From the NCBI GenBank assembly GCA_964057225.1, contig OZ059897.1, positions 9,424,001-9,488,000 of the forward strand: DNA of 64,000 nt, read 5' to 3'. Under the pieces are notes generated by a model. That model was not told the origin of the DNA. It saw only the letters and a list, made by a program, of their open reading frames with translations, and made no database searches. The position numbers and the translations under genes are program-made. Position 1 is the first letter of the stretch; each line of letters opens with the position of its first letter. The DNA is from Auanema rhodensis (lineage: Eukaryota > Animalia > Nematoda). Positions 11,844 to 55,062 of this stretch are shown in pieces.

Positions 11844-11855
11844 TGGTGCATCGGC
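11844..11855 (+). promoter_or_regulatory. Primer-binding site, probably tRNA-Gly(GCC)
   Basis: TGGTGCATCGGC is complementary to ...GCCGATGCA-CCA, a tRNA-Gly(GCC)-type 3' end. Confidence 0.8.
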
Positions 11856-23430: not shown

Positions 23431-23472
23431 TTGATGACGGGTTCAATACCCAGTGAGTCCTCGATTTATTTT
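23390..23472 (+). ncRNA. Putative tRNA-like Pol III unit embedded at the env 3' end
   Basis: A box TAGCGCAGTGG (23397-23407) and B box GGTTCAATACC (23440-23450) at tRNA spacing; CT-CTC-AG loop at the anticodon position; TTTT at 23469-23472; stems degenerate. Confidence 0.5.
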
Positions 23473-23567
23473 CTCGATTTCTTAGTTCCCTATCATAGCA
23501 AACGATTGTTCAATTTGATTTACACCAATCCTACACAATTTATCATTTCGCCGGGGGGAGGTATACT

Positions 23568-23987
23568 ATGTATAAAAACCTTCATTATTTCAGTCTTGAT
23601 AACATCAAAGAATGGAGCGATTCCCTTGATCAACTCCAGGATAACGGCAACGCAAAGATGCCTAACAAAAGTCAGAATATGTCTGCACCAAAAAAGCAGA
23701 ACAACTCTAAAGTGAAGTACAGAAAAATGGAAGAAGACATGAAATGTCAACTCTGTTGGAAGAAGGGCCACACCATGGGAAAATGCACAGTCTACAAGAC
23801 TGCAGCACAACGCGTCAAGCGTTGCAAGTTGATCAACATGTGCTTGAAGTGTTTGCGGAACCACTTTGGAAAACCGTGTGTGGAGAAGATGAAGAAAATA
23901 TGTCATGTGTGCAAAGGAAGCGGACTGGACCACGATCATCCTGGTGTATTATGCAAGCTGCAGTTTGCGGAGGAATTAGCAGAATGA
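23568..23987 (+). CDS. Accessory 139-aa basic protein with three zinc-knuckle motifs (nucleocapsid-like)
   Basis: CQLCWKKGHTMGKC, CLKCLRNHFGKPC and CHVC..H.H...LC; same arrangement as the BEL Gag triad; ATG start; ends shortly before the 3' LTR. Confidence 0.8.
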   Translation: MYKNLHYFSLDNIKEWSDSLDQLQDNGNAKMPNKSQNMSAPKKQNNSKVKYRKMEEDMKCQLCWKKGHTMGKCTVYKTAAQRVKRCKLINMCLKCLRNHFGKPCVEKMKKICHVCKGSGLDHDHPGVLCKLQFAEELAE

Positions 23988-24020
23988 AATCAGTTCTGAT
24001 TTCTCTCTCCTGGCCCGGAA

Positions 24021-24436
24021 TATCGCGAATGCGATTATTCATCATTCAATCGATGCAATCTCATCACGTTGGCTGATGAGATTCACGGGCACTCTGTTTT
24101 TATACCACCGTCGCGGACGGTCGCTTTTCTCTCTCCTCGTTGCTGTCTTTATCTTATGACTCATCTAGTCTGAACCACCGTTTTATCCTTGTCCTTTAGT
24201 AAGACTATCTCTAGTCTCATTAGTGATGTATATCTAGTCTTATTACATTCACTCTAGTCTTCTATGTACTTTATCTAGTCTTATTATATATCTTCTAGTC
24301 CTTATATTCTGTATTATGTATATCTGAATGGCATATGAATGAATCTTCCTTCCTCTAATAGTCTTTTACGTTAACAGGGCATAGAATAGAAAGTGTGAAC
24401 CTGGGAGGCTTTTTGAAGAGCCCTCTATCTTCGAAA
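24021..24436 (+). repeat. 3' LTR of the BEL/Pao element (TATCG...TTCGAAA)
   Basis: Repeat of 11428-11843, preceded by GGCCCGGAA and followed by TSD CCCCG. Confidence 0.95.
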
Positions 24437-27353: not shown

Positions 27354-27719
27354 CGTTCCATTCGGAGACTCTATATATGTAACTGCAGGGTTAGAGCCAG
27401 ACCGACTAGAGGAATGTGGAATGGCACCGCCTTCCCTCATGCCCCTATTCGGGAGTTCGCCCCTTTGCAAGCCCATGGACGGTTTGCATCTAACTTAGTT
27501 AATCTTATATATTAGTCTTTGTCTTGTAAGTGTAGTTTACTTTATCCTTGTGTTATTGTATTGTAATGATATTGTATTGTGTATAATAAACCTATATATT
27601 TCCTTATCTTATGTAATCCTTATGCTCTGTTTCCATACCGCTACACTTATGGAATACTATACGCGTAGTTGAGCAGACTACAATGGTCTGTTCAATATAC
27701 GTAGGAGCATAATGGAACG
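27354..27719 (+). mobile_element. 366-bp insertion, most likely a solo LTR of a Ty3/gypsy family with CG...CG ends
   Basis: TSD ATAG (27350-27353 and 27720-27723); 9-bp terminal inverted repeat CGTTCCATT/AATGGAACG; AATAAA at 27585; right end AATGGAACG is identical to the end of the gypsy LTR at 35024. A 5-bp TSD reading (GATAG) is also possible. Confidence 0.8.
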
Positions 27720-32494: not shown

Positions 32495-34607
32495 TTAAGT
32501 TTTACCTTTTATTTGAAATTTGAAAGTTTATTTTGAAAATTCATTTCTAACCTCTTTCTGATCAGATAGAATTCTGTAGATGTAACATTGTTTCAGTTCT
32601 TAGAACTCTGTTTAAGTGTTTTCAAACTTTGTATAGATAACAAGAAAAATGAAATGATAGAGATAGAACACTTCTGAGATCTTGATCCAAGGTTTTTCTG
32701 ACGGACTGATCCATTAGAACCAAAGATTACAAGAATTATTCTGATTTCATCTGCATAAAAATCCAGTAGAAAATTACCTTTTGCTCTGAACATCTAAATG
32801 ATTCAATACAATATCAGAAATCACAGCCCGGTTAGCTCAGTCGGTAGAGCACCAGACTCTTAATCTGGCTGTCGCGGGTTCGAGCCCCGCATCGGGCTTT
32901 GAGTTTTACCTTTTATTTGAAATTATAACGTTTATTTTGAAAATTTATTCCTAACCTCTATCTGATCAGATAGAATTCTGTAGCTGTAACATTGTTTCAG
33001 TTCTTAGAACTCTGTTTAAGTGTTTTCAAACTTTGTATAGATAACAAGAAAAATGAAATGATAGAGATAGAACACTTCTGAGATCTTGATCCAAGGTTTT
33101 TCTGACGGACTGATCCATTAGAACCAAAGATTACAAGAATTATTCTGATTTCATCTGCATAAAAATCCAGTAGAAAATTACCTTTTGCTCTGAACATCTA
33201 AATGATTCAATACAATTTTAGAAATCACAGCCCGGTTAGCTCAGTCGGTAGAGCACCAGACTCTTAATCTGGCTGTCGCGGGTTCGAGCCCCGCATCGGG
33301 CTTTAAGTTTTACCTTTTATTTGAAATTATAACGTTTATTTTGAAATTTCATTTCTAACCTCTTTCTGATCAGATAGTATTCTGTAGCTGTAACATTGTT
33401 TCAGTTCTTAGAACTCTGTTTAAGTGTTTTCAAACTTTGTATAGATAACAAGAAAAATAAAATGATAGAGATAGAACACTTCTAAGATCTTGATCTAAAA
33501 TTTTTCTGACGGACTGATCCATTAGAACCAAAGATAACAAGAATTATTCTGATTTCACCTGCATAAAGATCCAGTAGAAAATTACGTTAAGCTCTGAACA
33601 TCTAAATGATTCAATACAATATTAGAAATCACAGCCCGGTTAGCTCAGTCGGTAGAGCACCAGACTCTTAATCTGGCTGTCGCGGGTTCGAGCCCCGCAT
33701 CGGGCTTTAAGCTTTACCTTTTATTTGAAATTTGAAAGTTTATTTTGAAAATTCATTTCTAACCTCTTTCTGATCAGATAGAATTCTGTAGCTGTAACAT
33801 TGTTTCAGTTCTTAGAACTCTGTTTAAGTGTTTTCAAACTTTGTATAGATAACAAGAAAAATGAAATGATAGAGATAGAACACTTCTGAGATCTTGATCC
33901 AAGGTTTTTCTGACGGACTGATCCATTAGAACCAAAGATTACAAGAATTATTCTGATTTCATCTGCATAAAGATCCAGTAGAAAATTACCTTTTGCTCTG
34001 AACATCTAAATGATTCAATACAATATCAGAAATCACAGCCCGGTTAGCTCAGTCGGTAGAGCACCAGACTCTTAATCTGGCTGTCGCGGGTTCGAGCCCC
34101 GCATCGGGCTTTGAGTTTTACCTTTTATTTGAAATTATAACGTTTATTTTGAAAATTTATTCCTAACCTCTATCTGATCAGATAGAATTCTGTAGCTGTA
34201 ACATTGTTTCAGTTCTTAGAACTCTGTTTAAGTGTTTTCAAACTTTGTATAGATAACAAGAAAAATGAAATGATAGAGATAGAACACTTCTGAGATCTTG
34301 ATCCAAGGTTTTTCTGACGGACTGATCCATTAGAACCAAAGATTACAAGAATTATTCTGATTTCATCTGCATAAAGATCCAGTAGAAAATTACCTTTTCC
34401 TCTGAACATCTAAATGATTCAATACAATTTTAGAAATCACAGCCCGGTTAGCTCAGTCGGTAGAGCACCAGACTCTTAATCTGGCTGTCGCGGGTTCGAG
34501 CCCCGCATCGGGCTTTAAGTTTTACCTTTTATTTGAAATTATAACGTTTATTTTGAAAATTTATTCCTAACCTCTTTCTGATCAGATAGATTTCTGTAGA
34601 TGTAACA

Positions 34608-35024
34608 TGTTACATACATATCTCAAAGGAAAGCAGCTGACCATGGCAGCTGCTATTATTAAACTAATGCAGATAGTTTTTAAGCAATTCTGAGAATATT
34701 CTAGATGCACTTTTTATAAGCTTTGTAACAATTTGTGTAAACTGAGTAGGAGTTGTATGGATATATAAACCTGAGTCCTCAAGACTCAGGCATCTCATTA
34801 TCTCATTATCTTACTTTCTCTTTATCTTCTTTATATTCTCTTTCTTAACTCTAGCTTAAATCTTTGTATAATTATATTATAATGCGAACAATAAACCTTT
34901 ATACATTTCATCTTTTGTTTCTTATTTCACCTTACATTACACACTTATATTTAAAATCATACTCATCGTCTCATAGTCTGTTTGGATATCTCAACTTGGA
35001 ACCATTGAGAATCTAAATGGAACG
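34608..35024 (+). repeat. 5' LTR of the gypsy element (TGTTAC...GGAACG)
   Basis: Repeat of 46511-46927; TATATAAA at 34762-34769, hairpin CCTGAGTC/GACTCAGG at 34770-34790, AATAAA at 34890-34895. Confidence 0.96.
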
Positions 35025-35042
35025 TGGAGGTTCCGCCGAGAT
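35025..35042 (+). promoter_or_regulatory. Primer-binding site, tRNA-Gln
   Basis: TGGAGGTTCCGCCGAGAT is complementary (one G-U) to the tRNA-Gln 3' end ATCTCGGTGGAACCT-CCA. Confidence 0.88.
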
Positions 35043-36281
35043 CCTTCCTTTTGGACAGGATCTCGTAAAGGAACTCAAGCGCTACCGTCTACATCTCTTA
35101 TTCAATTAAAAATCTTATCTCTCTCTTAAAGTTAGCTTATAATATTTTCTTAAAAACTCTAAAACTTTTCTATTAAAAATTATATCCAAAAACTCTTTAC
35201 AAAAACTCAGTTTTCCATTCATTATATTCTCATAAATCATTTTCAATTATTCATAAGAGTACTTATATCATTTATCATTCTCTCTATCCAAAATCCTATA
35301 TACGAAAATTATTCAAATTCAATAATTAACTTTTCTAAGAATTATAAGTTTATTTTCACATTTTTTGAACAAAAATAGTTAAGTTCTTTATAAAATTAAT
35401 TTAGAATTAAGAAATAAAAAAAGAATATTGCTTCTATACCTCTCAATCTTAATCATCTTATCATATTATCTGAATCTTCATCTTATCATACTATCTTAAT
35501 CATCCTATCATACCATATTTTTTTTATTTTCTTTATGTTCGTTTATAAAACTATTATTCGTATGCTACTACACTGTATTCTCATAAACCCACCCCTCCCC
35601 CCCCCCCCCCCGTAATTTCATAAACAAGAAATCCCGTGTTAAACACGACAGTAAAAATATTTATTAGGCGCAGCGTATCCAAATTCCGATTACCTTAGCA
35701 CCTGAAAATACGAAAAATAATTAAATTAATCAATAAGTTTTAACTCATACGCAAAAACCATCCCCCCTCGTTAAGAATAATGCCAGACACTCAAGAGACT
35801 CGAGCGGAGGCCGACACTCAGGATAAGACGTACGCCCCATGAAATAATTAGAGAATTTTTGAATTGAAATCTGCCCCACATTGATATAAATAATAAGAGT
35901 GGTCTCGCCATCATAGAGTCAGGGAGCAGGATGCAGAAGGCAGCTGACATACCTGTGACTCAGATAGGTTAATGAGGTCTGGGAAAATGAAATGATTGCG
36001 AAAATTCTATTTTTGTATCCTTGTCCCAAAAGACTGGCGAACTATTAACTTTCATTTCATGCCTTTTTCACAATATAGAACTTGTCCCTTCGAAAAGGCA
36101 CACTAGTTTCAAACCTGTGTTAGACCCGGACGAGCTATATTGGTAAAGAGATTACTTGCAAGACTAGCTACCTTCATAAGAATCGCGCACACAAACCCAA
36201 CATTATTCTTTACGTTTTTCTATATATAAAATTATTTTGGCACACGTTGGATATAACAAATTTCCTTACAGGATACCAACG

Positions 36282-39200
36282 ATGCTGCCCAATACTGGTC
36301 CAAAACCTCCGCTGGACCCTGCTGCCACTTCAAATATTATAAGAAGAAAAAGACAACCGCCCGCAACATATTCTCCCCCCTCTGCAAAACAAGCAAAGTT
36401 AAGCATTAAAACAAAGTCAATGGTAATACATACCCCAAGACATCGCGGCATTCAAAAACAATTCACCAATCCCAAATCACATGAAAAAACGAAGAAACAA
36501 AAAACAGACATAGTCGAAAGAAACACCTTAGAAAAGAAAATTATCCCAAACATTAAACCTATTCCTAAAAACATAGCAAGCAAAGGGAACCCTCAAAACC
36601 CCCCAACCAACACCATACCAAATACAATCAACCCAATCAATCCTTTAATAGCCACCCCTAGAAGAAGCAATACACCAACCACACAAAAATCACCTACGCC
36701 CGCACTTTCTTCAACCACACCCGCAGTAAGCTCATCCCCACCTCTACGAAACTCACCTTCATCCATTGATCATTCTACATCCGGGCATTCTCTATCTCCG
36801 TCTCTTCCATCGCAAACTAATCAAGCAAATACTTTTGTTGCAGAAAACAAGAGAATTAACCCAAGAATGGACCCAATGGACGAAGGCGCACCACTTACGC
36901 AAACCTCGGGAAGGGCACCTGTTCCAACAACTACAATCATCCCTCAACCAGCAGCGATTCCGTCCGCCATACGCGATATAAAAGCTCCACGCTACGATGG
37001 AAAAACACCATTCAACCGCTATCTACTATACCTAGATGAACACTTCAACGCTACAAGAACAACTATGCCCGAACGTCTTCAAAGCATACAATTACTGCTA
37101 GAAGATGATCGAGCAAGAGAAGCGTACAGAAAACTCACAACCGAAGATAAGCGACTTGGATGGGACCATGTCAAGAAGCGACTCTCAGAAATGATCACAC
37201 CGAAAAAACAGAGAGAACGAGCAATGCACCGCCTACATGGCTTGAAACAGTTACCAACGGAATCGGTACAAAGCTTTGCAACAAGATGTTCTAACGAAGC
37301 CTACTCGGCTATGGACATGAACAACGAAAGTGAGCTTAACATGCTCCGATCCACCTTCACCTGGGGACTAAGACCCGAAATAAGCGAACACGTTAGTCGT
37401 CTAGACCCACCAAACTTTGAGGAAGCTTACGAAATGGCCTTACGAGAAGAACTCTTTATACAAAATAGACCAACATCGTTTGTCAACAATATAGAGAGGT
37501 CGTTCAACAACCTCAACATTCGAGACTCGAAGAACAACAATCAATACCAGAGAAACGAATCTAAGGATTTCAAAGGAACCAAACCGATGTATAATGGCAA
37601 TGGCAAACCACACAACCGATATCCGGACAGATACAACAACCAATATCGGCCTCATCAACACCAATACAGGAACCATAACTCACGATTCTCTCAAAATAAG
37701 GGATCAAGACAAAACTACTTTGACAGATCACGGAACAGAAGCCAAGAAAGACCATACTATCGAAACCGCGACCAAAACTATAGCGGACACAACAACCGGC
37801 GACAATCAAATAATCACGAACAATACCCCTCTCAATACAATCGAAGCCAATACAACAATTATAGAAGTCGCCCGCGCAGCACCTCCAATGGACCGGAACG
37901 GTATAGAGAACGCACACAGAGCCCAGGAGTACGTTTTCAAGTCAACAACGTCACGGAAAACGAAGTACCGAACAACAAAAGAAAATCAACACCATTCCTA
38001 CCCCTCTTTATCACAATTATCGCACTCATTATAAACACATGCAGTGCAGAAACAACGTACCAGTTATGCACAGGAAACAGAGGAGGAATATATGTCGAGC
38101 CGCCATCTCCAACAGCTTGCCGATTCATCGCACCAACTAATAACCATATCCAGAAGACTACAGCAGAATTGTTCATCCAAAACCTACAACCAAAAGAATG
38201 GGAAGCATGGAAATGTGCAATTGAAACTTACCAACTCTGCATTCACGACGTTTTCTTCATCAGAGAAACTAATGTCTCACTAGCAAAAGTTTCACCAACA
38301 ACACTGCAAGAATGTTCGTCAGCTATTAAAGAAAGAATATTCAACGGTACCAACCTTCAAAGAGAAGCACCAGGACTCTATGGAACTCCATTCCCACATA
38401 CAACTATTACTAATGGTATATGGAAACAGGAATGCGAACAACGTACCAGATTCATAGCTGAACGAGGACACATGACCAGCCTACAAGACAATACAGTACT
38501 CTCAGATATATTCATAAACGACAACGGATGCACCAGTGACAAAGGACAATGCCTAACCAACAACGCTCTCATCATATGGACCCCACCATCAGAAAAACAT
38601 AGTTGCTCGTACACTTCATTAGGCTCTCACGAAGTTTTTATATCAGAAGACACCATATTGATTCCCGGAATTCAAAGTGCTTTTATTCTAAACAATAAAA
38701 CACCGGAAAAAGAAGCCTCCTCATGCTTACAAAAAGAGATATTTACTACAAATAGCGGAACTCTAATCTCCTTCAACTCAACCTCAAGCTTAGGACGATC
38801 AAGAAGACACGCAATCACGGAATACCCTAAAGGATTCTTGACAGTTCATCAATACCCCTCGCTAAGATATTCAGCCAGCAAAACCGGAACTATTCTACTA
38901 TATACAACCTATATTCAACGGAAAAGACTTGACATCCATTACAATCTCAATAACATAACAAATATGTTACCTAAGTATATCGCAATCTTCAAACACCTAG
39001 GTATAAATTTTGATGTTATCAAAAATCGTCTTATATGGCACAAATATGAAGACGTCAACATAGCCATTCTACACGCCCTAGGAGAAGCAGAAATAAGAGA
39101 AGCAACAAAAATCGCGATCGATAATCTATCGTATAAGGAACTTACGCATAAACTTAGCAAACGGATCACAATTAAGGATTTTAAGAAGATACTACCAACC

Positions 39201-42200
39201 AAAACAGGAGACTACTATGAAATCGCGAAAGAAATTGCTTACTCACTTGCGGAAATACCTACTACGTTAGCTACAGGAGAAACAACACCATCTTTAGAAG
39301 AATACTTATATCAACTCATGCCACCAAGAAAACCAAGACTCACCAAGACACGAAACGATTTAGAACTGTACGAACAACTAGCACAAGCAAAAATTATCCT
39401 GAACGCAATAAATAATCCGAAGAAGCTACATTCAAAAGAAGAATACGAAGCAGAAATGAAGAAATGGATCAAATATGAAAAAGAACTGAACTTACCACCA
39501 TTACAACTGCCAAACTACACAGTTATCTTCGATGGCGACGATATATTCTACGGCTTCCGGAAAAGAAATCCTACAAATTATAGCATTACACAAGAGGATA
39601 GTGAAAAATTTTATAATCATTATCTACCCCTTATCAGTACTCCCGGAACACGACCTTTTGCAACCACAATTAGAAGCACTTCGACCCCCCTACAAACTAC
39701 TACTACAACCACTACCACGACCCCTAAGCCTACAACCATAAGGAACGTCATCACTTCGACAATCACACCCAAAACACATATATCCACAACAACTAGACCC
39801 AAACCAACAATACCCACGTCTTCATCAACTACTACTACTACTACCACTACTACTACTACTACTTCTACTACTGCTAGACCCAGATCAACAACAACCACAA
39901 CACCTACAACAACCACAACTATATTCACCACTCATCGACCAACACAATCATTCTCCACCCCCCAATCTACATTCAATATTACTACAAACCCAATCACAAT
40001 CACCTCAAGCCAGGAATACAATAGGAAAGAATCACTCACCAAGTCACCGCCTCCAAGAACTACAAAAAGATCTATCACTACCACTCGCAGCACACCTGAA
40101 GAAATATCATCACATATTGGTAAGAAAGCTCACGTAGACTACCTTAAAGCTAAGAACGATATCGTCCAAAAATGGAATGAACATCTTCATCAACAAGAAA
40201 CGCAATCTCATCTACAATATGCCACTACCAATCTGGAAGATGATATCATACGTACGTTCACAACAAACAGAAACAACATCTGCCACGTACAAAATAAACA
40301 ACTACTTACCTGGTGGGCTATTCTTCAAATAAATCCTACTATAGGGATGCGTACAATGCTACGACGACAGGATATATCTGCAAGATTCATAAATGATAAA
40401 CTAATTTATGTAATGCCATGCACACCAATTCAAATTACAAAAACATACCGTGATCACAAAGTCAACAGCACGTGTTTTCTGGAAACCCCAGTCGAAACGG
40501 AACATCACGGCCAACTGTTCATCCTACCAGGTACAAGAGACCTCACACCGATGGCACATGCCATACCATGCGGATTCACAATCAAGGATCCCTGGAAAGA
40601 AAACGATCAATGGACTAATAATAACCAATCAATAAATGTAACATCACCAGCATACATCGACGAGTTAGGATCAATCAACCTAGAACATATCAAGTTTAAT
40701 GGAAGCAACATTTTCAACAATCTAACAGAATCAACGTTTTCTATGGCACTAGCAATATCATATGGATCCAGCTTAGCAACGCTACAGGCTACTTTACCAG
40801 GAAGAATAAAACCTGTAATCAAACAAAGATTAATTCCTAACATGAACCCTGTTACCCTAACAGCAGGAGCAGCCAGCAGCTTACTACTCAGCTACGAACA
40901 TACAAAAGAAGCTATAACTTGGAAAATGTTTGACTTTCTGTCACCAATATGGGAAAAGATTCAAACCTGGACACTACGCGTACTTGCTATCATTGGATCA
41001 ATCATCATAACAATTGGCATAATCACACTCGCCACCTGGATAATAAAAATATACGCATGTAGCTCAAGGATACCCATCAACAATGTCAAATGGGAAGCAG
41101 AATACTTACAACCACTATCAACTGAGAACACAAGAACAGAAACATCTCATCCTTCTCCGTCCGCTCCATACGTCGACAACCATCACAACAGCTGTCAACT
41201 CACATTGTATGATCCTTCAGCACCAATTCCTGAACACATTTATGAAGCTTATTTCCCTACAAGCATGAAGAAAGAAAACATAAACTACGTAGGAGGATCA
41301 CAATTACCGTTTGTCCCGATTTCAATCCACAATCACATTTTTAAGGCACTATGGGACACGGGAGCATCAGCATCATACATGCGAGAATCCACCTTCAAAC
41401 AACTGCCCGCTGCAACGATGGTACTAAAACAAACAACAGCGATAGTCGCGAATAAATCTAAATTCTCATTTATGGGATACACAAGGATCCTCATAACAAT
41501 AGGAACAACAGAAACAGAACACAAATTTTATGTAGCAGAAGATAACTACTGTCCAGCACCAGTGTTACTTGGAATAGACTTCATGGAAGCATTACATCAA
41601 CAAGGAATTTACACCTCACTTCGACCGCTGGATAAAACAATTGTTATCGGCACAACACATGTTCCACTAGCACGAGAAACATCTCCGTGGGAACACCAGA
41701 CCACAAAAGCATATGTGGTTAGCTTAGAAAACAAAACGCTAAGACCAGGAGAAACAAGAACGCTCACGCTAGAAGTACACGATCCAGAAAGCTATGAACA
41801 GGCGTTTCTAGATTGTAAGAAACCAGGCAACAAACTCTCTTTCACGCCTACTATATTTACGCCCACTGGATACGGAGTACAAATTTACGCGACGAACATA
41901 TGCAAACAGCCACTCGAAATTCAAATGAACCAAGAAATAGGGATAGCAGAAGCGATACCAAAGGACAACCAAGAAAAATACGAAGGACAATACATACCTC
42001 CGGAAGCTCGATGGGAAGAGCAACTGCCATATTTTCCAGACAATTTCATCAATGAGCTTGACCTTTCAGAAGCCTGCTTCTCACAAATCGAACAACAGCA
42101 ACTGAAAGAAATAATTTTACTACATAAACAAGCGTTTCTCAACGAAGATAGAAATATCGGACTCTTCCTAGGACCAATTGAACACTCCATTCCAATCATG

Positions 42201-45200
42201 CCAGGAAAAACACCATCATTCAAAATTACTTATCGTATACCACTCTCCCAACAAGAAGAAGTGGAGAAACAAATAGAAGAAATGCTACAACAAAGAATCA
42301 TTGAACCATCAAACTCAATGACAACTAGTCCAGTAATTTTGGTGAAGAAGAAAGACAAAACTTATAGATTTGTAACGGACTTTCGAGCTCTGAATGCAAT
42401 CACTCAGAAACAAGTATATGTCATATCAAACATACAGGACATCCTAGATTTGGCCGCTGGAGCAAGGATCTTCAGCAACTTTGATTTAGTATCTGGATTT
42501 TTCCAAATACCTCTTAAGAAAGAAGATCGTCATCTTACAGCTTTCACAACAACAAGTGGAACTTATCAATATTGTCGAATGCCGATGGGATTATGTGGAT
42601 CACCCCATACTTTTCAAAACGCAGTACGATACCTGCAATCAATGGTTAAATGCAAGCTATTCGTATATCTAGATGATTTACTGTTAATCTCTGAATCTAC
42701 GACAGCACATTTAAAAGATATTGAAGAAGTTTTGGAAGCAGTAACTCAAATAGGATTCAAAATAAAACTGAAGAAATGCGCATTCGCAAGAAAGGAAGTA
42801 AAATTTCTAGGATACATAGTTGGACAAGAAGGAATTAAACCGGACCCACATAAAATCAAGGCAATACAAGATTATCCCCAACCAAAATCAACAACAGGAG
42901 TAAGAGCTTTCATGGGAGTAGTAAACTACTTCAGAAGGTTCATAAAGAACGCTGCAGGAATAGCAACACCACTCTACAACCTCACTCGGAAAGACACTCC
43001 GTTCAAATGGACAGAAGAAGAAGAAATTGCTTTTAATACTTTGAAGAAAACATTGACTCAAGCACCTGTGTTACAAGCACCAATCCCGAAACGACCATAT
43101 GTTATTGAAAGTGATGGAAGTATGATAGCAGTTGGCGCTGTACTACTTCAAGCGAAAGACGATCAAGAACCATTACATCCAATAGCTTTTGCTAGTCGGA
43201 AACTCAACAAAGCTGAAAGGAATTATCCACCAATAGAAGTAGAAGCATTAGCTCTTACATTCGCCGTCAAACAATTTCGCACCTACATACTAGGAACAGC
43301 AACCAAAATTATCACGGATCATAGACCACTTACTAGTTTAATGACTAGAAAGGATTTAATAGGTCGTTTAGCAAAATTTCAAATTGTTTTACAAGAATAC
43401 GATATTGAAATTATCTACAGACCAGGAAAATTAAACAGTGTATGTGACGCATTATCACGATATTTTGAAGATGAAATCAACGAAGCAAAACCACCAGCAA
43501 AGAAGAAAAACGAAAGAAAAACGACGGAAGATACTATTCATCAGATAAACACCTTCACGATAGCAGATATTCGATCAGTTCAGAATCAATCAAATTGGAT
43601 AAAAGAAACTATGGATAAAATAAAGAATAATACAGCTGGACGACAACTGACGGACAGATATATTGTGTACAACGATGTACTATACTCAAAACCAAAAAGA
43701 AGCCTACAAGTACCACGAACAATTTTACCACGAGAAGAGCACATAATTAATCCAATTATGAAGAAATTTCATGAAGATCCGACACTCGGAGCTCATCTAG
43801 GAATAAACAAAACAATGGACTCAATATCAAGACGATTTACATGGACTGGAATGCAAGAAGACATTACAAACTACATCAACAGATGTCTTGCTTGTGCGAA
43901 AAGAAAGAACAACCCTCACGAAGCAACGGTGGAACCAATGAAAAATTTTCCAACATCAACAAAACCATGGCAAAGAGTACACATGGATATACTCGGACCA
44001 TTACCTAGGACAGAACAAGAAAACAGATATGTTCTTTCAATTCAAGATTCTTTTTCAAAATGGATAATCGCAATTCCGCTAATCAGACAAACATCAGAAG
44101 AAATTATATCAGCTATCGAAAAATATCTCTTCTATGTTTTTGGACCACCTGTTACTATCATCACAGACAATGGATCTAATTTTATTTCAAACGATTTCAC
44201 TACTATGTGCAGTAATTTTGGAACTACACACCACACTACTATGCCGTATTACAAAAACGCTAACGGACAAGTAGAAAGATTGCATCGGACGATCGAAGAA
44301 GCATTAACAGCCTACGTTAACGACGAACAAAACGATTGGGATAAAATACTTCCGAAGATTATTTTTACACTCAACAGATTACCAAACGCCACCACTAAAA
44401 CATCACCATACGAATGTTTGTTTGGACAAGTAGCACGTCTACCCATTGACAAAAACTTGGAAACACCGGAAGAACAAAATATCACGGATCAGCTCAAAAA
44501 CTTAAGAGATATTCAAGAAAAAGTCAAGGAAAAGATTGCCACCAACGAAGAAAGAATGAAGCAGAAATACGATCAAGCACATAGGACAAAAGAAAGAATA
44601 TTAGATATAGGAGATCGAGTATTTGTACAAAGAGCGAACCCAAGCAACAAATTACAAATACGAAGAGATGGACCTTACCGGATAGTGACAATTGAAGGAA
44701 ACAACATCAGCATAACGGACCAAGATGGAAATATTATAAAAGCTCACAAAAATAACATACGTTATTTTCCACCAGACGATAATCTTATATCAACAAGAAA
44801 TAATGAAGAAGAGGAAGAAGAGGACCAAGACATAGCAAACGAAGAAGAAGAAGAAGAAGAAACAAGTTGGAATAATCTGGATGAATGGGAACAAACCAAT
44901 AATACGGAAAATAACAACAACTGTTACCCAACAGGCAGTCCAGATACTCTCGCGCAACTGTTACCTATCACAGGGAATAACAGAGGAGTAAACGAAGAAG
45001 AAATTGAACATAATTCAGAAACACCTGACGACCTTGCTACAGCAAGAAGAATAACAAATTCTAATATACAATTAGAAAATGAATCAACAACAATCGACAG
45101 AATTCAAGAGGACCTCAGACAGCTGACACCTTTCTCTCAAGAAGAAGGTCCTAATCAAAACGATATAGAAGATAATAACGCAAAAACATACGAAAAGCTA

Positions 45201-45482
45201 CGAGATCAATTCAAGAATGAAAACAGAAAGGAGCTATTTGAGGACAGAAACAGAAACTCACCAGCAATCAAAAATTGGAACACTACACTTGCCGCAGCAC
45301 TAGGAATAGGAAATGAAAACTCACGCCCGTATCATGTTAAACTACAACCCAAAAGAAAAACACAAGACGAAGAAATCAGAAGTAATGGAGAATTGGAACT
45401 ACATGGAAAAGCGGATCAAAGCAAAAAGCAGCAGAATAAATCTCCAACGCAAAACAAAGGAGAACAAGTACGAAATTTTTAA
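36282..45482 (+). CDS. Gag-Env-PR-RT-RNaseH-IN polyprotein (ORF track starts at TTG 36237; first ATG is 36282)
   Basis: Retrotransposon Gag (PRYDG, LKQLPTESVQSF, FTWGL); internal signal peptide; Env; TM; protease LWDTGA (D at 41355); RT SPVILVKKKD, RMPMGL, YLDD (42666); RNase H ESDGS, TDHRPL; IN HHCC, MDILGP, TDNGS, VERL; GPY motif. Confidence 0.96.
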   Translation: MLPNTGPKPPLDPAATSNIIRRKRQPPATYSPPSAKQAKLSIKTKSMVIHTPRHRGIQKQFTNPKSHEKTKKQKTDIVERNTLEKKIIPNIKPIPKNIASKGNPQNPPTNTIPNTINPINPLIATPRRSNTPTTQKSPTPALSSTTPAVSSSPPLRNSPSSIDHSTSGHSLSPSLPSQTNQANTFVAENKRINPRMDPMDEGAPLTQTSGRAPVPTTTIIPQPAAIPSAIRDIKAPRYDGKTPFNRYLLYLDEHFNATRTTMPERLQSIQLLLEDDRAREAYRKLTTEDKRLGWDHVKKRLSEMITPKKQRERAMHRLHGLKQLPTESVQSFATRCSNEAYSAMDMNNESELNMLRSTFTWGLRPEISEHVSRLDPPNFEEAYEMALREELFIQNRPTSFVNNIERSFNNLNIRDSKNNNQYQRNESKDFKGTKPMYNGNGKPHNRYPDRYNNQYRPHQHQYRNHNSRFSQNKGSRQNYFDRSRNRSQERPYYRNRDQNYSGHNNRRQSNNHEQYPSQYNRSQYNNYRSRPRSTSNGPERYRERTQSPGVRFQVNNVTENEVPNNKRKSTPFLPLFITIIALIINTCSAETTYQLCTGNRGGIYVEPPSPTACRFIAPTNNHIQKTTAELFIQNLQPKEWEAWKCAIETYQLCIHDVFFIRETNVSLAKVSPTTLQECSSAIKERIFNGTNLQREAPGLYGTPFPHTTITNGIWKQECEQRTRFIAERGHMTSLQDNTVLSDIFINDNGCTSDKGQCLTNNALIIWTPPSEKHSCSYTSLGSHEVFISEDTILIPGIQSAFILNNKTPEKEASSCLQKEIFTTNSGTLISFNSTSSLGRSRRHAITEYPKGFLTVHQYPSLRYSASKTGTILLYTTYIQRKRLDIHYNLNNITNMLPKYIAIFKHLGINFDVIKNRLIWHKYEDVNIAILHALGEAEIREATKIAIDNLSYKELTHKLSKRITIKDFKKILPTKTGDYYEIAKEIAYSLAEIPTTLATGETTPSLEEYLYQLMPPRKPRLTKTRNDLELYEQLAQAKIILNAINNPKKLHSKEEYEAEMKKWIKYEKELNLPPLQLPNYTVIFDGDDIFYGFRKRNPTNYSITQEDSEKFYNHYLPLISTPGTRPFATTIRSTSTPLQTTTTTTTTTPKPTTIRNVITSTITPKTHISTTTRPKPTIPTSSSTTTTTTTTTTTTSTTARPRSTTTTTPTTTTTIFTTHRPTQSFSTPQSTFNITTNPITITSSQEYNRKESLTKSPPPRTTKRSITTTRSTPEEISSHIGKKAHVDYLKAKNDIVQKWNEHLHQQETQSHLQYATTNLEDDIIRTFTTNRNNICHVQNKQLLTWWAILQINPTIGMRTMLRRQDISARFINDKLIYVMPCTPIQITKTYRDHKVNSTCFLETPVETEHHGQLFILPGTRDLTPMAHAIPCGFTIKDPWKENDQWTNNNQSINVTSPAYIDELGSINLEHIKFNGSNIFNNLTESTFSMALAISYGSSLATLQATLPGRIKPVIKQRLIPNMNPVTLTAGAASSLLLSYEHTKEAITWKMFDFLSPIWEKIQTWTLRVLAIIGSIIITIGIITLATWIIKIYACSSRIPINNVKWEAEYLQPLSTENTRTETSHPSPSAPYVDNHHNSCQLTLYDPSAPIPEHIYEAYFPTSMKKENINYVGGSQLPFVPISIHNHIFKALWDTGASASYMRESTFKQLPAATMVLKQTTAIVANKSKFSFMGYTRILITIGTTETEHKFYVAEDNYCPAPVLLGIDFMEALHQQGIYTSLRPLDKTIVIGTTHVPLARETSPWEHQTTKAYVVSLENKTLRPGETRTLTLEVHDPESYEQAFLDCKKPGNKLSFTPTIFTPTGYGVQIYATNICKQPLEIQMNQEIGIAEAIPKDNQEKYEGQYIPPEARWEEQLPYFPDNFINELDLSEACFSQIEQQQLKEIILLHKQAFLNEDRNIGLFLGPIEHSIPIMPGKTPSFKITYRIPLSQQEEVEKQIEEMLQQRIIEPSNSMTTSPVILVKKKDKTYRFVTDFRALNAITQKQVYVISNIQDILDLAAGARIFSNFDLVSGFFQIPLKKEDRHLTAFTTTSGTYQYCRMPMGLCGSPHTFQNAVRYLQSMVKCKLFVYLDDLLLISESTTAHLKDIEEVLEAVTQIGFKIKLKKCAFARKEVKFLGYIVGQEGIKPDPHKIKAIQDYPQPKSTTGVRAFMGVVNYFRRFIKNAAGIATPLYNLTRKDTPFKWTEEEEIAFNTLKKTLTQAPVLQAPIPKRPYVIESDGSMIAVGAVLLQAKDDQEPLHPIAFASRKLNKAERNYPPIEVEALALTFAVKQFRTYILGTATKIITDHRPLTSLMTRKDLIGRLAKFQIVLQEYDIEIIYRPGKLNSVCDALSRYFEDEINEAKPPAKKKNERKTTEDTIHQINTFTIADIRSVQNQSNWIKETMDKIKNNTAGRQLTDRYIVYNDVLYSKPKRSLQVPRTILPREEHIINPIMKKFHEDPTLGAHLGINKTMDSISRRFTWTGMQEDITNYINRCLACAKRKNNPHEATVEPMKNFPTSTKPWQRVHMDILGPLPRTEQENRYVLSIQDSFSKWIIAIPLIRQTSEEIISAIEKYLFYVFGPPVTIITDNGSNFISNDFTTMCSNFGTTHHTTMPYYKNANGQVERLHRTIEEALTAYVNDEQNDWDKILPKIIFTLNRLPNATTKTSPYECLFGQVARLPIDKNLETPEEQNITDQLKNLRDIQEKVKEKIATNEERMKQKYDQAHRTKERILDIGDRVFVQRANPSNKLQIRRDGPYRIVTIEGNNISITDQDGNIIKAHKNNIRYFPPDDNLISTRNNEEEEEEDQDIANEEEEEEETSWNNLDEWEQTNNTENNNNCYPTGSPDTLAQLLPITGNNRGVNEEEIEHNSETPDDLATARRITNSNIQLENESTTIDRIQEDLRQLTPFSQEEGPNQNDIEDNNAKTYEKLRDQFKNENRKELFEDRNRNSPAIKNWNTTLAAALGIGNENSRPYHVKLQPKRKTQDEEIRSNGELELHGKADQSKKQQNKSPTQNKGEQVRNF
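37992..41058 (+). other. Env region: gB-like class III fusion glycoprotein with furin site and Thr-rich mucin-like insert
   Basis: Signal PFLPLFITIIALIINTCSA|E (mature start ~38049); Cys-rich N-part; RSRR at 38796-38807; Thr-rich ~39660-40090; LQY..C.VQN...W...NP......SAR...D....C segment (40212-40421) resembling the herpesvirus gB central helix; TM ~40980-41058. Confidence 0.8.
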
Positions 45483-45685
45483 TTAACTAACAAAAATCGT
45501 AGAATTGTAAAAATAATTTTTCTTTCTTTCGTATAGTACATTAAACATAAGACATAGATCAAAAACCACCGAAATTCTAATTTCTATCCTTTAATTTTAA
45601 CAAATTGTAACAATCACTGAAAAACAAACTATATAAAGAGAAAATTTTGATAGAGAAAAATTCAATAACACTTTTCTTACTCAAA

Positions 45686-46330
45686 ATGACCTCCTCTCTC
45701 GCCAACGTCACACTCTCTACATTCCTCGCAACTCCAACACCACTGGTCCCTCTAGCGACCACTATTGAACAAGAATGGATAGAGGTAGAAAACCTTCGTG
45801 AAGGTCTTCTACCTATCAACTGCATGAAGCCCAACTTAGGACCAATAATAAGCCTCCAAACGAGCAAATTGGAAAAGAAGACACAGCACATCCTATTTAT
45901 GATGGAACTATTGGAGGAGAAAACCAAAAACTATAAGGAAAACGATCTGAAGGAGCTTCGCCAGCATCAAAAGAAATGGACAGAAGGATGTTCTCTCAGC
46001 CAGAAAGAGAACAGAATCCGACACATAATGCTGGGACAACCCGCCAGAACGCAGACCACAGCTGACATCTACAAAGCAATGCCGACGTGGACAACACAGA
46101 TGACACAACAAGCTGTAGGAAATAGCGGAACCGAAGAAGAAGCATCGTGGATAGAGATAGGGCAAGACCTATCAGTAGTAATCGAAAAACTACTGACAAA
46201 AAGGACTACCAACACGTCCGCATCAAAAAGTAAGGCAAAAGCAGTTAGCCAAACCATCAGAACAATGGAGCTGCTTGGACTAGCATCAATGACGGAAATG
46301 ATCCAGGAAATTGACCAACTGGCGGATTAA
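45686..46330 (+). CDS. Orphan accessory ORF (214 aa from ATG 45686) between pol and the 3' LTR
   Basis: Long open frame with A-rich composition like the main ORF, flanked by AT-rich spacers, AAAATG context; no recognised domain. Confidence 0.7.
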   Translation: MTSSLANVTLSTFLATPTPLVPLATTIEQEWIEVENLREGLLPINCMKPNLGPIISLQTSKLEKKTQHILFMMELLEEKTKNYKENDLKELRQHQKKWTEGCSLSQKENRIRHIMLGQPARTQTTADIYKAMPTWTTQMTQQAVGNSGTEEEASWIEIGQDLSVVIEKLLTKRTTNTSASKSKAKAVSQTIRTMELLGLASMTEMIQEIDQLAD

Positions 46331-46510
46331 AGAAGAGAGGAAAGGTTTAAATCATTTATAAAATTCTATCTCTTAAAATTTTTCTCTTTATCAATAGTTT
46401 GTTGAAAAATTTGCTTTATCTCATGCCATTTTTTTTAATTTTTATTTTTCTCTCTTAATTATTATTTGCATATAACAGCTGAGGTCAGCTGACTTGTATC
46501 CGTTGGGGCA

Positions 46511-46927
46511 TGTTACATACATATCTCAAAGGAAAGCAGCTGACCATGGCAGCTGCTATTATTAAACTAATGCAGATAGTTTTTAAGCAATTCTGAGAAT
46601 ATTCTAGATGCACTTTTTATAAGCTTTGTAACAATTTGTGTAAACTGAGTAGGAGTTGTATGGATATATAAACCTGAGTCCTCAAGACTCAGGCATCTCA
46701 TTATCTCATTATCTTACTTTCTCTTTATCTTCTTTATATTCTCTTTCTTAACTCTAGCTTAAATCTTTGTATAATTATATTATAATGCGAACAATAAACC
46801 TTTATACATTTCATCTTTTGTTTCTTATTTCACCTTACATTACACACTTATATTTAAAATCATACTCATCGTCTCATAGTCTGTTTGGATATCTCAACTT
46901 GGAACCATTGAGAATCTAAATGGAACG
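46511..46927 (+). repeat. 3' LTR of the gypsy element
   Basis: Repeat of 34608-35024, preceded by a short purine run GGGGCA and followed by TSD AACA. Confidence 0.96.
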
Positions 46928-49900
46928 AACATTGTTTCAGTTCTTAGAACTCTGTTTAAGTGTTTTCAAACTTTGTATAGATAACAAGAAAAATGAAATG
47001 ATAGAGATAGAACACTTCTAAGATCTCGATCCAAGGTTTTTCTGACGGACTGATCCATTAGAACCAAAGATTACAAGAATTATTCTGATTTCACCTGCAT
47101 AAAGATCCAGTAGAAAATTACCTTTTGCTCTGAACATCTAAATGATTCAATACAATATCAGAAATCACAGCCCGGTTAGCTCAGTCGGTAGAGCACCAGA
47201 CTCTTAATCTGGCTGTCGCGGGTTCGAGCCCCGCATCGGGCTTTAAGTTTTACCTTTTATTTGAAATTATAACGTTTATTTTGAAAATTTATTCCTAACC
47301 TCTTTCTGATCAGATAGAATTCTGTAGATGTAACATTGTTTCAGTTCTTAGAACTCTGTTTAAGTGTTTTCAAACTTTGTAAAGATACCAAGAAAAATGA
47401 AATGATAGAGATAGAACACTTCTAAGATCTTGATCCAAGGTTTTTCTGACGGACTGATCCATTAGAACCAAAGATTACAAGAATTATTCTGATTTCACCT
47501 GCATAAAGATCCAGTAGAAAATTACCTTTTGCTCTGAACATCTAAATGATTCAATACAATATCAGAAATCACAGCCCGGTTAGCTCAGTCGGTAGAGCAC
47601 CAGACTCTTAATCTGGCTGTCGCGGGTTCGAGCCCCGCATCGGGCTTTAAGTTTTACCTTTTATTTGAAATTATAACGTTTATTTTGAAAATTTATTCCT
47701 AACCTCTTTCTGATCAGATAGAATTCTGTAGATGTAACATTGTTTTAGTTCTTAGAACTCTGTTTAAGTGTTTTCAAACTTTGTATAGATAACAAGAAAA
47801 ATGAAATGATAGAGATAGAACACTTCTGAGATCTTGATCCAAGGTTTTTCTGACGGACTGATCCATTAGAACCAAAGATTACAAGAATTATTCTGATTTC
47901 ATCTGCATAAAGATCCAGTAGAAAATTACCTTTTGCTCTGAACATCTAAATGATTCAATACAATATCAGAAATCACAGCCCGGTTAGCTCAGTCGGTAGA
48001 GCACCAGACTCTTAATCTGGCTGTCGCGGGTTCGAGCCCCGCATCGGGCTTTGAGTTTTACCTTTTATTTGAAATTATAACGTTTATTTTGAAAATTTAT
48101 TCCTAACCTCTATCTGATCAGATAGAATTCTGTAGCTGTAACATTGTTTCAGTTCTTAGAACTCTGTTTAAGTGTTTTCAAACTTTGTATAGATAACAAG
48201 AAAAATGAAATGATAGAGATTGAACACTTCTGAGATCTTGATCCAAGGTTTTTCTGACGGACTGATCCATTAGAACCAAAGATTACAAGAATTATTCTGA
48301 TTTCATCTGCATAAAGATCCAGTAGAAAATTACCTTTTGCTCTGAACATCTAAATGATTCAATACAATATCAGAAATCACAGCCCGGTTAGCTCAGTCGG
48401 TAGAGCACCAGACTCTTAATCTGGCTGTCGCGGGTTCGAGCCCCGCATCGGGCTTTGAGTTTTACCTTTTATTTGAAATTATAACGTTTATTTTGAAAAT
48501 TTATTCCTAACCTCTATCTGATCAGATAGAATTCTGTAGCTGTAACATTGTTTCAGTTCTTAGAACTCTGTTTAAGTGTTTTCAAACTTTGTATAGATAA
48601 CAAGAAAAATGAAATGATAGAGATAGAACACTTCTGAGATCTTGATCCAAGGTTTTTCTGACGGACTGATCCATTAGAACCAAAGATTACAAGAATTATT
48701 CTGATTTCATCTGCATAAAAATCCAGTAGAAAATTACCTTTTGCTCTGAACATCTAAATGATTCAATACAATTTTAGAAATCACAGCCCGGTTAGCTCAG
48801 TCGGTAGAGCACCAGACTCTTAATCTGGCTGTCGCGGGTTCGAGCCCCGCATCGGGCTTTAAGTTTTACCTTTTATTTGAAATTATAACGTTTATTTTGA
48901 AATTTCATTTCTAACCTCTTTCTGATCAGATAGTATTCTGTAGCTGTAACATTGTTTCAGTTCTTAGAACTCTGTTTAAGTGTTTTCAAACTTTGTATAG
49001 ATAACAAGAAAAATAAAATGATAGAGATAGAACACTTCTAAGATCTTGATCTAAAATTTTTCTGACGGACTGATCCATTAGAACCAAAGATAACAAGAAT
49101 TATTCTGATTTCACCTGCATAAAGATCCAGTAGAAAATTACGTTAAGCTCTGAACATCTAAATGATTCAATACAATATTAGAAATCACAGCCCGGTTAGC
49201 TCAGTCGGTAGAGCACCAGACTCTTAATCTGGCTGTCGCGGGTTCGAGCCCCGCATCGGGCTTTAAGCTTTACCTTTTATTTGAAATTTGAAAGTTTATT
49301 TTGAAAATTCATTTCTAACCTCTTTCTGATCAGATAGAATTCTGTAGCTGTAACATTGTTTCAGTTCTTAGAACTCTGTTTAAGTGTTTTCAAACTTTGT
49401 ATAGATAACAAGAAAAATGAAATGATAGAGATAGAACACTTCTGAGATCTTGATCCAAGGTTTTTCTGACGGACTGATCCATTAGAACCAAAGATTACAA
49501 GAATTATTCTGATTTCATCTGCATAAAGATCCAGTAGAAAATTACCTTTTGCTCTGAACATCTAAATGATTCAATACAATATCAGAAATCACAGCCCGGT
49601 TAGCTCAGTCGGTAGAGCACCAGACTCTTAATCTGGCTGTCGCGGGTTCGAGCCCCGCATCGGGCTTTGAGTTTTACCTTTTATTTGAAATTATAACGTT
49701 TATTTTGAAAATTTATTCCTAACCTCTTTCTGATCAGATAGATTTCTGTAGATGTAACATTGTTTCAGTTCTTAGAACTCTGTTTAAGTGTTTTCAAACT
49801 TTGTATAGATAACAAGAAAAATGAAATGATAGAGATAGAACACTTCTAAGATCTCGATCCAAGGTTTTTCTGACGGACTGATCCATTAGAACCAAAGATT

Positions 49901-52329: not shown

Positions 52330-55062
52330 TGTCACATCTGCAAGCACATGGTAAACATGTGCGCGCTATTCAAATAGCGGGAGCCTGAACAAGCCCCGCC
52401 TACAACATGGGACACACATGGCACTCTTGCTTCTGGCCTAACCCAGATAGGTTGTCTTATAGCCATGTGAGTCTCATCTCTATATCATCTATATCTATAC
52501 TCTATTTAATACTTTATTATATCTCTTTATATTCTTTCTTAATGTAATTCTTATATTGTATTTTCTTGTTATCTGATAATGAATCCTTTTCTCTTTAAGT
52601 ATTTGTCTTAATAAGGAAATCGGGGCGTTCGGGTCTGCCTACCTAAGGAACAAGGTAGAAGTACATATATCTTCCGACCATGAAAAGACGGGAAGAAACA
52701 ATATGTAACGTGGAGGTTCCACCTTGCTTACTTTACTGTTAATTTATTGACATCAAGTACGAGACTTTTGGACTTAATTACCCAACAGTGAGGAGTAACC
52801 GAGCCGTGCACCATGATTTCCCCAAAAATTATTTTGGCTACCACTTCTCCTCCGCTCAACGAAAACTGGGAGGTGTCTGAGACGTTTGGGGAAACTATCA
52901 GACAATAGTTTTGACGAGCGTTACCTTTTTGTTATGCACGCGCGTGCTATTTTGATTCATTACTTTATGATGTGAATGTCCAGTGTGGCAACAGAGCTCA
53001 CTTTTTAGCTGAGTTGTTTGGAAGCTGGAGGCTGTTGGGATAATTTTATTTACGATTTTTTGATTTTGATTCACATCCAAGGGTTCATCAGGGTTCTACT
53101 CCTGTTAACTCTTTTCTTATTAGTTCAGAGATAATAAGAATATTTAAATTCCTACCCACCCAAGTCCACTCTACGTCTGCCAACGTTTCCTTTTTCCTAT
53201 ATTATTGACAGATTACTGAATTTAAATTCCTATATCAATCTTAAATTACCTTCTAAATCTTTTGAAATTAAATTAAAAATTATCTTAATTAAGATTTATT
53301 TTGAAATTCTTTCTACAAATCTTAATAAACTTTATAAAATTGAACTTAATATACGAGATGAGACATTTTTGTTTACTTTAAGCTTACTCACATTCAAATA
53401 GTTGGCCCACGCGTACCAGCTGTTCGGCATGTGTAGTCAATAACAGCTGTTAAAATTCAAAAGTTTTCAAACAGGCTTAAGGCACCATCTGTGATTCCTA
53501 ATTTGTCTCTAAGCTGACATTAGTGATTATAATATTCAAATATCACGACAGACGGTCAATGGTTGTTTACCATAAGCGCTAACATCTGGTGTCGTGACAC
53601 ATGGCTGGAGGCGGAGCTTGAAGCTTCAACGATCCTCCTTCATCAGACGCCATTGTCACAAACGTTTTTACTGGAGTCTAGTTGCTTCCAGTACGCGCTC
53701 TTATATTCATCTAACTGTATTCACCAGCCACCATGTCGGACTCGGACATCAGCGAGGACAACAAAGATTAGGAACAAGGATCACCAGAGCCATACCTTTT
53801 GTATGTCACACAACAACAAAGAAGAATGAACAACGGTACAATACACGAAATAGAACACAAAATAAAGAAATTCAGGTTAATGACTTAGTTATGATAAAAG
53901 TGAATTCTACTCGAAACAAACTAACACCTTCATTCGAAGGGCCTTATTTAGTTACAGCAGTTCAAAGATCTTTCGTCGTGGTTCAAACAGATAAAGGAAA
54001 AAGCAGAAGAGTACACAAGGACTTTGTCAAACCTTACCAACGGACAACATCTATTCCGGTTATCACAATTTCTTGAAGGTAGTTTTTTTTTTAACAAAAT
54101 CAAATTGTTGAAATTTTTTTTTTATTTTATTTTGTGCCATTTCTGATTGTACCACTTCTTTGTTGTTGATTGATTTTCTCTGAGAAGTCTGCTATTGTTT
54201 TACAAAAGTTTGTTTTATTACTCCAACTCTCATTGAGTAGATTTTTTTTTTCAACTCTTGTGAATCTTGCTAATTTTTTATGCTTAATCATTACTTGTAT
54301 TCACCTTATGGACATTAGTCATACGGGTTAAACGAGTTTTCATTTTTTTGTACAGAACGGGCTCGACCTATTCTCAGGGTAACACCGTACCTGTACAACT
54401 CAAGAAAATGAACGACTATATCACAGTCGAATGGTTTAGAAGCAAAGCTCTCGTTTGCAAGCATTTCACTACTCAAGTGAATGGAATAGAATCTATTCGA
54501 TACTACATTTTGAATTCAACAAACTTGAAGAGACAATAGCTAAACTTTCAAATCGTATTGTATACATTATTTTTTATCGACTACACCATGATTTTTTTTT
54601 TCCAACATCCAACTATCTTAAAAAGTGAATTAATTTATTTTGTTTTTGAACGAGGACGTTCAACTTTTTAAGGTGGGGGGATGTCACATCTGCAAGCACA
54701 TGGTAAACATGTGCGCGCTATTCAAATAGCGGGAGCCTGAACAAGCCCCGCCTACAACATGGGACACACATGGCACTCTTGCTTCTGGCCTAACCCAGAT
54801 AGGTTGTCTTATAGCCATGTGAGTCTCATCTCTATATCATCTATATCTATACTCTATTTAATACTTTATTATATCTCTTTATATTCTTTCTTAATGTAAT
54901 TCTTATATTGCATTTTCTTGTTATCTGATAATGAATCTTTTTCTCTTTAAGTATTTGTCTTAATAAGGAAATCGGGGCGTTCGGGTCTGCCTACCTAAGG
55001 AACAAGGTAGAAGTACATATATCTTCCGACCATGAAAAGACGGGAAGAAACAATATGTAACG
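52330..55062 (+). mobile_element. Non-autonomous or internally deleted Ty3/gypsy-type LTR element, copy 1 (2733 bp)
   Basis: 381-bp LTRs at 52330-52710 and 54682-55062 (TGTCAC...GTAACG, 2 mismatches), TSD CAAG, PBS TGGAGGTTCCACC (tRNA-Gln) at 52711-52723, PPT AAGGTGGGGGGA at 54670-54681; no gag or RT. Confidence 0.93.
53594..54076 (+). pseudogene. Remnant of gypsy integrase C-terminus (GPY/F domain); only the last ~90 codons are recognisable
   Basis: RYNTRNRTQNKEIQVNDLVMIK...NKLTPSFEGPYLV...RRVHKDFVKPY aligns by eye with KYDQAHRTKERILDIGDRVFVQ...NKLQIRRDGPYRI...KAHKNNIRYF of the intact element. Confidence 0.8.

Follow-up and report, generated by a model that had tools for sequence, protein, structure and literature searches.

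Chary & Hayashi (eLife 2026; PMC13524379) describe elements of Nematoda, Bryozoa and Platyhelminthes that carry only an HSV/gB-type ENV and are arranged GAG-ENV-POL, and name those of nematodes 'ancient errantiviruses'. The nematode case is credited there to Sacco et al. 2022 (J Gen Virol, doi 10.1099/jgv.0.001739), whose title, as given in that paper, refers to non-canonical nematode endogenous retroviruses (NERVs) with a flipped env/pol order, a metavirus with a captured RNA-virus glycoprotein. Supplementary file 1 contains 36 Nematoda elements, all ENV_HSV, and supplementary file 6 gives counts of ENV-POL regions for two Auanema assemblies; we found no Auanema element among the curated rows (PMC13524379). 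The terms 'polyprotein', 'fused' and 'single ORF' have 0 matches in the main text, which indicates that processing is undiscussed there, with the figures possibly showing a fused frame or insert, and transmission and entry of gB-carrying elements are stated to be unknown (PMC13524379). In Cer1 of C. elegans, gag runs into pol uninterrupted by a stop (PMC10309623), so that in-frame capture of env would have needed no new translation trick, while for Burro we found no statement on gene order in the accessible text of PMC8532177.

The stretch of DNA analysed here (the window, positions 1-64000) is a tandem array of a 404-bp repeat with 81 tRNA-Lys(CTT) genes and copies 96-99% alike, and the element lies inside this array, with the following boundaries and non-coding features.

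34604..34607, no strand: left target site duplication (TSD) AACA, with the empty-site pattern given by 53 array monomers of the window
34608-46927, + strand: whole element, 12320 bp between the outer LTR ends
34608..35024, + strand: 5' LTR, 417 bp, TG...CG ends
34762-34769, + strand: TATA-like box in the 5' LTR
34890, + strand: AATAAA in the 5' LTR
35025..35036, + strand: primer binding site (PBS), one mismatch from the tRNA-Gln-type PBS of Caenorhabditis GAG-ENV-POL elements in supplementary file 1 of PMC13524379
35037..36281, + strand: AT-rich leader, 1.25 kb, with 9 upstream ATGs
45686..46330, + strand: extra ORF between pol and the 3' LTR, 214 aa, candidate accessory protein
46505..46510, + strand: short purine tract ahead of the 3' LTR
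46511..46927, + strand: 3' LTR, identical to the 5' LTR (417 bp)
46928..46931, no strand: right TSD AACA

Both 417-bp LTRs are identical, the 4-bp TSD is perfect, and the spacing of the host array is interrupted by exactly 12320+4 = 12324 bp. The 3' end of the LTR is CG instead of CA. Target site and LTR start together form a perfect palindrome, TGTAACA then TGTTACA (34601-34614), and a nematode-type 3' splice acceptor motif at 36266-36271, 10 nt ahead of the ATG, could be used in cis- or trans-splicing. For the extra ORF, neither Pfam nor Atlas gave a match, which shows neither absence nor novelty.

Several other insertions were seen in the window. An intact BEL/Pao element (~11433-24429, ends approximate; ORF 14539-23430) has identical terminal repeats of ~404 bp, a phlebovirus G2-type envelope after the integrase and a further 162-aa ORF (23499-23987), and resembles Atlas virus. 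Two near-identical non-autonomous LTR elements of 2733 bp (52330-55062 and 57087-59819), with 381-bp LTRs, a 4-bp TSD CAAG and an integrase C-terminal remnant, occupy the same array position and were likely duplicated together with the array; they have a Gln-type PBS and ...AACG end as in the main element, to which no DNA or protein match was found. A 366-bp solo-LTR-like insert (27354-27719) has a perfect terminal inverted repeat, CGTTCCA...TGGAACG, a 4-bp TSD ATAG, and the same right end as the LTR of the main element. The spacing gives no support to precise tRNA targeting of the Ty3 kind: related insertions lie 75, ~92 and 239 nt after a tRNA gene.

Examination of the coding region showed that a stop-free frame runs on the + strand from 36180 to 45482, encoding 3066 aa from the ATG at 36282.

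36282..45482, + strand: Gag-Env-PR-RT-RH-IN in a single frame, 3066 aa
36282..37991, + strand: Gag, with a basic low-complexity N-terminus, a capsid domain (aa 275-364) and an R/N/Q/Y-rich NC-like region without zinc knuckle
37992..38048, + strand: internal signal sequence, predicted from hydropathy (aa 571-589), with basic residues upstream
40980..41060, + strand: transmembrane (TM) helix, predicted from hydropathy (aa 1567-1585 = 40980-41036)
41316..41588, + strand: aspartic protease (PR), DTG at aa 1692
42342..43400, + strand: reverse transcriptase (RT; YLDD) and RNase H (RH)
43746..44700, + strand: integrase (IN), with H2C2 zinc finger, rve core and GPY motif at aa 2797, then an acidic tail to aa 3066

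Pfam placed Retrotrans_gag at aa 275-364, Glycoprotein_B at 1308-1386, protease at 1679-1769, RT at 2021-2180, RNase H at 2243-2373 and integrase at 2489-2657, and Gag scanned alone matched PF03732 with 27.1 bits, above the cut-off of 24.1. No match to Peptidase_A17 or DUF1759 was obtained in the Pfam scan of the element, in contrast to its BEL/Pao neighbour. Using a Kyte-Doolittle scan (19-aa windows, mean cut-off 1.7), only two spans of the polyprotein exceeded the cut-off, aa 571-589 and aa 1567-1585, and these, together with their conservation in relatives, would place Gag in the cytosol, Env in the lumen and Pol in the cytosol. The order PR-RT-RH-IN, the gypsy-type domains, LTRs, PBS and TSD identify the locus as a Ty3/gypsy LTR element, intact and, given the identical LTRs, TSD and open frame, recently inserted. 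These results agree with a first-pass annotation made from the sequence alone, which had proposed a recently inserted Ty3/gypsy element with Gag-Env-Pol in one stop-free frame, a signal at 37992-38048 and a TM helix at ~40980. It had also described a ~1000-aa ectodomain rich in Cys and N-glycosylation sequons; the ectodomain has 977 aa, with 14 Cys and 14 sequons, and is only moderately Cys-rich.

We assessed how widely this order is shared using a phmmer search against 1.84 billion representatives, which gave 249 matches at E up to 0.001 (best 150 of 249 listed), and a set of 153 collected proteins. Env precedes Pol in one chain in all 41 gypsy-type relatives that contain parts of both (42 with the query), some of which are predicted gene models in which splicing may be hidden, while in 8 BEL/Pao chains of the set Env follows Pol. 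A hydrophobic stretch resembling the internal signal was seen in 29/33 chains, and Env remains intact and in frame in relatives of ~17-44% identity. The closest database proteins are from Auanema sp. JU1783 (P0003, P0004), Caenorhabditis auriculariae (P0001) and C. japonica (P0008), all unnamed annotations and from other species and copies than the element; P0003 is 56% identical to it over 1350 aa. In an RT-RH tree of 18 rows (17 relatives and the query), built without outgroup and without the published GAG-ENV-POL sequences, the element was sister to P0003 with support 100/99, in a clade that also holds proteins of C. auriculariae and C. japonica. Every named closest relative comes from a rhabditid nematode, and the intron sizes described below fit a nematode host; the element is likely of nematode origin. 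In P0002 (Aphelenchus avenae), another Gag-Env-Pol relative, three protease-like domains lie in a row after the TM helix.

The element stretch is present in 15 public runs from 4 studies. Among the 40 of 78 differences from the window that were listed, 23/33 in the ORF are synonymous (0.33 expected) and none creates a stop; env has 2 synonymous and 3 non-synonymous differences, too few to show selection. A fused frame that arose by accident of assembly or annotation, or by one-off insertion of an unrelated glycoprotein, is refuted by bridging contigs and by the shared order of the relatives, and we give it practically no credence: env and PR are joined in a DNA contig from another sample (38126-41809), gag and env in an RNA-type contig, and the order is common to dozens of relatives, which also answers the doubt in the first-pass annotation that the envelope might be a one-off.

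We next compared the envelope with known fusion proteins. Its ectodomain falls into two halves around an insert.

38049..38795, + strand: Env N-half, class III fusion-module domains, 10 Cys
38796..38807, + strand: furin-type site RSRR, aa 839-842
38859..39641, + strand: inserted helical domain, ~aa 860-1120
39672..40121, + strand: mucin-like stalk rich in Thr/Ser (T+S 54-72% over aa 1131-1230), modelled as disordered
40122..40979, + strand: Env C-half, with long central helix, beta-domain, C-terminal arm and membrane-proximal helix

The C-half matched PF24664 (Monjiviricetes_fusion) with 46.9 bits against a cut-off of 27. A word-index search with the N-half found nothing, and a single-sequence search of the ectodomain against the PDB gave no significant match. 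An Env profile of 85 sequences, consisting of the query and 84 of the 153 collected relatives picked as short chains with one or both halves, matched herpesvirus gB chains with E down to 5.5e-19, and through the N-half it also matched four entries titled simply 'Glycoprotein' (E 1.6e-4 to 4.6e-4), which we take to be rabies G. A first model from a 4-sequence alignment (pLDDT 36.6) was set aside, and the AlphaFold model from the 85-sequence alignment reached a mean pLDDT of 69.5, with core blocks mostly at 80-98. Using VIA-align, gB ranked first (prefusion HSV-1 gB: Z 10.0, rmsd 6.0, 380 residues aligned across both halves, model range 1-875), followed by Chandipura G and the Bourbon and Thogoto glycoproteins, and the top two BFVD matches were a rhabdo-like virus glycoprotein and a nyavirus (nyamivirus) glycoprotein. 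Against gB, Foldseek gave low TM-scores (0.16-0.17 normalised by query length, rmsd ~26), which the large insert in a monomeric model would lead one to expect. Pfam, profile search and predicted fold thus support Env as a gB-like class III fusion protein, and the gB-like envelope of the first-pass annotation is borne out both in the profile search and in the fold comparison that it had proposed.

The insert takes up ~465 of the 977 residues and comprises the furin-type site, the helical domain and the mucin-like stalk. A similar furin-type site was seen in 21/33 Gag-Env-Pol-type chains, and the gap between the fusogen halves ranges from 16 to 503 aa in these chains, exceeding 100 aa in 18/33 (query included), whereas it is never >100 aa in the 8 BEL/Pao chains. 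The helical domain has no Pfam match and strong matches in only 3 of the 153 collected relatives, including two Auanema sp. JU1783 proteins; P0003 has both the helical domain and the mucin stalk in common with the element. Domain and stalk together may form an attachment or shielding module, and the insert is a candidate answer to how a gB could function without gD/gH/gL.

A motif of the form [VI]N-x-[VIL] recurs at the junctions of the polyprotein, with four candidate protease sites in the element.

37941..37952, + strand: VNNV, aa 554-557, ahead of the signal
41076..41087, + strand: INNV, aa 1599-1602, just past the TM helix
41280-41291, + strand: INYV, aa 1667-1670, ahead of PR
43545-43556, + strand: INTF, aa 2422-2425, between RNase H and integrase

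The motif was first noticed in the query, P0001 and P0002, and these three are left out of the statistics. It occurs before the signal in 10/30 relatives (background 0.059), after the TM helix in 13/29 (0.079), before PR in 10/29 (0.033; P0017 is scored as negative, since there the window runs into the motif after the TM helix) and in 7/16 between RNase H and IN (0.122). Binomial p values range from 2e-8 to 2e-3 and are overstated because the relatives are not independent, and at each junction the motif is missing from ~55-65% of relatives. Ty1 is cleaved between PR and IN at PTIN*NVHT, where P2 and P2' are Val/Ile (PMC6952103), although the Ty1 protease is a copia enzyme and the element is Ty3/gypsy. 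Presence of the motif at the PR and IN boundaries and at both edges of Env, and its likeness to the Ty1 site, suggest that these are sites of the element's own protease. It is therefore likely, on sequence grounds, that PR releases both Gag and Pol from the membrane anchors predicted for them, which makes the release of Pol by PR that had been proposed from the first inspection plausible.

These motifs are also compatible with a PR that cuts early, on the ER, so that Gag and Pol would form cytosolic particles for intracellular retrotransposition and Env would travel alone, in cell-cell fusion or receptor blocking, or matter only occasionally. The single frame of Cer1 gives rise to cytoplasmic Gag particles (PMC10309623), and the transmission route is given as unknown outside Drosophila (PMC13524379), both of which fit early cleavage. 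However, the intact, in-frame Env of the relatives does not, and an Env placed between Gag and PR would force a co-location that would be useful only with membrane assembly; overall we find early cleavage unlikely. The reading that we favour, and hold to be probable, is an intact Gag-Env-Pol element with membrane assembly and late maturation, in which PR frees membrane-tied Gag and Pol. Gag would be made in the cytosol, the internal signal would direct the ectodomain into the ER, and signal peptidase would cut after the signal, leaving Gag tied to the membrane via the signal stub, while the TM helix would bring Pol back to the cytosol as the tail of Env and furin would cleave between the two halves of the fusogen, at RSRR. 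Gag, Env and Pol, made 1:1:1, would gather on one membrane, and their clustering would allow PR to dimerise and cut the [VI]N-x-[VI] sites on either side of Env, ahead of the signal and past the TM helix, as well as those before PR and before IN. The particle produced would be enveloped, would mature once assembled, and would enter germ cells through fusion driven by Env.

We finally assessed RNA-type contigs from three public runs (X9, X12 and X14), all from one study and of guessed RNA nature, for splicing of the element.

38184..42510, - strand: region covered by 15 GT-AG introns in RNA-type contigs of closely related copies; the RNA is antisense and non-coding

There were 18 joints in these contigs, and all 15 joints listed are GT..AG on the minus strand, so that the only strand-resolved RNA of the element is antisense. 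The introns are mostly 41-78 nt, with others of 469, 588 and 1015 nt, and one donor joins two acceptors. Donors have A at +3 in 10/14 (background 0.25) and G at +5 in 9/14 (0.21), and acceptors have TT at -6,-5 in 11/15 (0.14). None of the joints was present in the DNA run used for comparison (X4), which has another organism label than the RNA-type runs, and a DNA copy of the joined sequence in the organism of the RNA-type runs could also account for them. The 5' leader is without RNA-type contig cover, which we do not take as evidence.

The same contigs bear on whether a sense splice drops Env from most messages, giving a normal Gag-Pol and leaving the fused frame as a minor, Env-making message. 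Donor-like motifs at 37478 and 37929 would serve such a splice. However, the + strand has no TTNYAG-type acceptor over 39578-41806, hence none ahead of PR, and one RNA-type contig, of undefined strand, is unspliced over 36290-39571, across the Gag-Env junction. The Env-skipping splice that the first-pass annotation had raised for checking was not among the 15 listed joints (of 18), 0 of which are on the sense strand, although contigs cannot prove its absence; taken together, we consider this route highly improbable.

An antisense protein-coding gene was rejected, as the longest stop-free stretch is 88 aa along one exon path (14/15 introns) and all frames are closed. Likewise, selection for antisense splice sites was not evident in comparison with codon shuffles: minus-strand acceptors number 39 vs 45+/-5, with no enrichment, and where donors are in excess (70 vs 54+/-6), the plus strand has an excess too (14 vs 7+/-2). 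With U making up 40% of the minus strand and no clear selection of splice sites, passive (cryptic) splicing of an antisense transcript is most likely. Since the public runs differ from the window at scattered sites, the antisense RNA may stem from another copy or strain. Once spliced it may feed host silencing, which makes it a lead on host control, as the tRNA-array location is a lead on target choice. Judged by its listings, a literature search turned up no work on either a spliced antisense RNA or insertion into a tRNA array for such elements.

A broader reading joins these parts. Gag-Env-Pol elements would be obligately enveloped through a flavivirus-like assembly, with Gag on the signal stub, Pol on the Env tail and PR cutting conserved sites in the budded particle; in this lineage a gB-like protein with its own attachment module, a helical domain on a mucin stalk, would replace partner glycoproteins; and a heavily spliced antisense RNA would regulate or silence the element. 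We put this combination forward tentatively, as possible and on balance somewhat doubtful.

Compared with known systems, the predicted class III fold is common to Env, herpesvirus gB and the glycoproteins of Monjiviricetes (rhabdo-, nyami- and chu-like), which also have a furin-type site in the linker before the central helix, as here, whereas in the element Env has an insert of ~465 aa and forms the central part of the polyprotein of a retroelement, where Pol is its tail. The NERVs reportedly have small extra ORF(s) and a gag-env-pro-pol frame that is continuous and includes a nyamivirus-like Env, all of which match the element, a likeness drawn by description only. As in the nematode GAG-ENV-POL elements, env lies between gag and pol and its class III ectodomain is flanked by a predicted signal and TM helix; the separate F-type env ORF 3' of pol that marks Drosophila-type errantiviruses was not found, nor were the peptidase A17/DUF1759 domains and env after IN of BEL/Pao. 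The catalogued nematode elements share the Ty3/gypsy pol with a gB-type Env between gag and pol, LTRs ~10-13 kb apart and, in 8/36 Nematoda rows, a tRNA-Gln-type PBS (supplementary material of PMC13524379). A single-frame polyprotein is also the strategy of Cer1, treated as an LTR retrotransposon without Env in the accessible text of PMC10309623, and of Atlas-type belpaoviruses, in which the BEL/Pao env sits after IN. The novelty implied by the first-pass annotation does not stand, since Gag-Env-Pol gypsy elements with a gB-type Env are already catalogued (PMC13524379): the architecture is already published, and the element is a further member of a described class. As such it offers a clean, complete example in which to ask how one Gag-Env-Pol chain is threaded, cut and packaged, with exact candidate processing sites supplied by the junction motifs. 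In the accessible parts of PMC13524379 we saw no mention of the insert, the antisense RNA or the tRNA-array site, and what this locus adds to the known class is the protease motifs at the junctions, the ~465-aa insert, the spliced antisense RNA and the site in a tRNA-Lys array.
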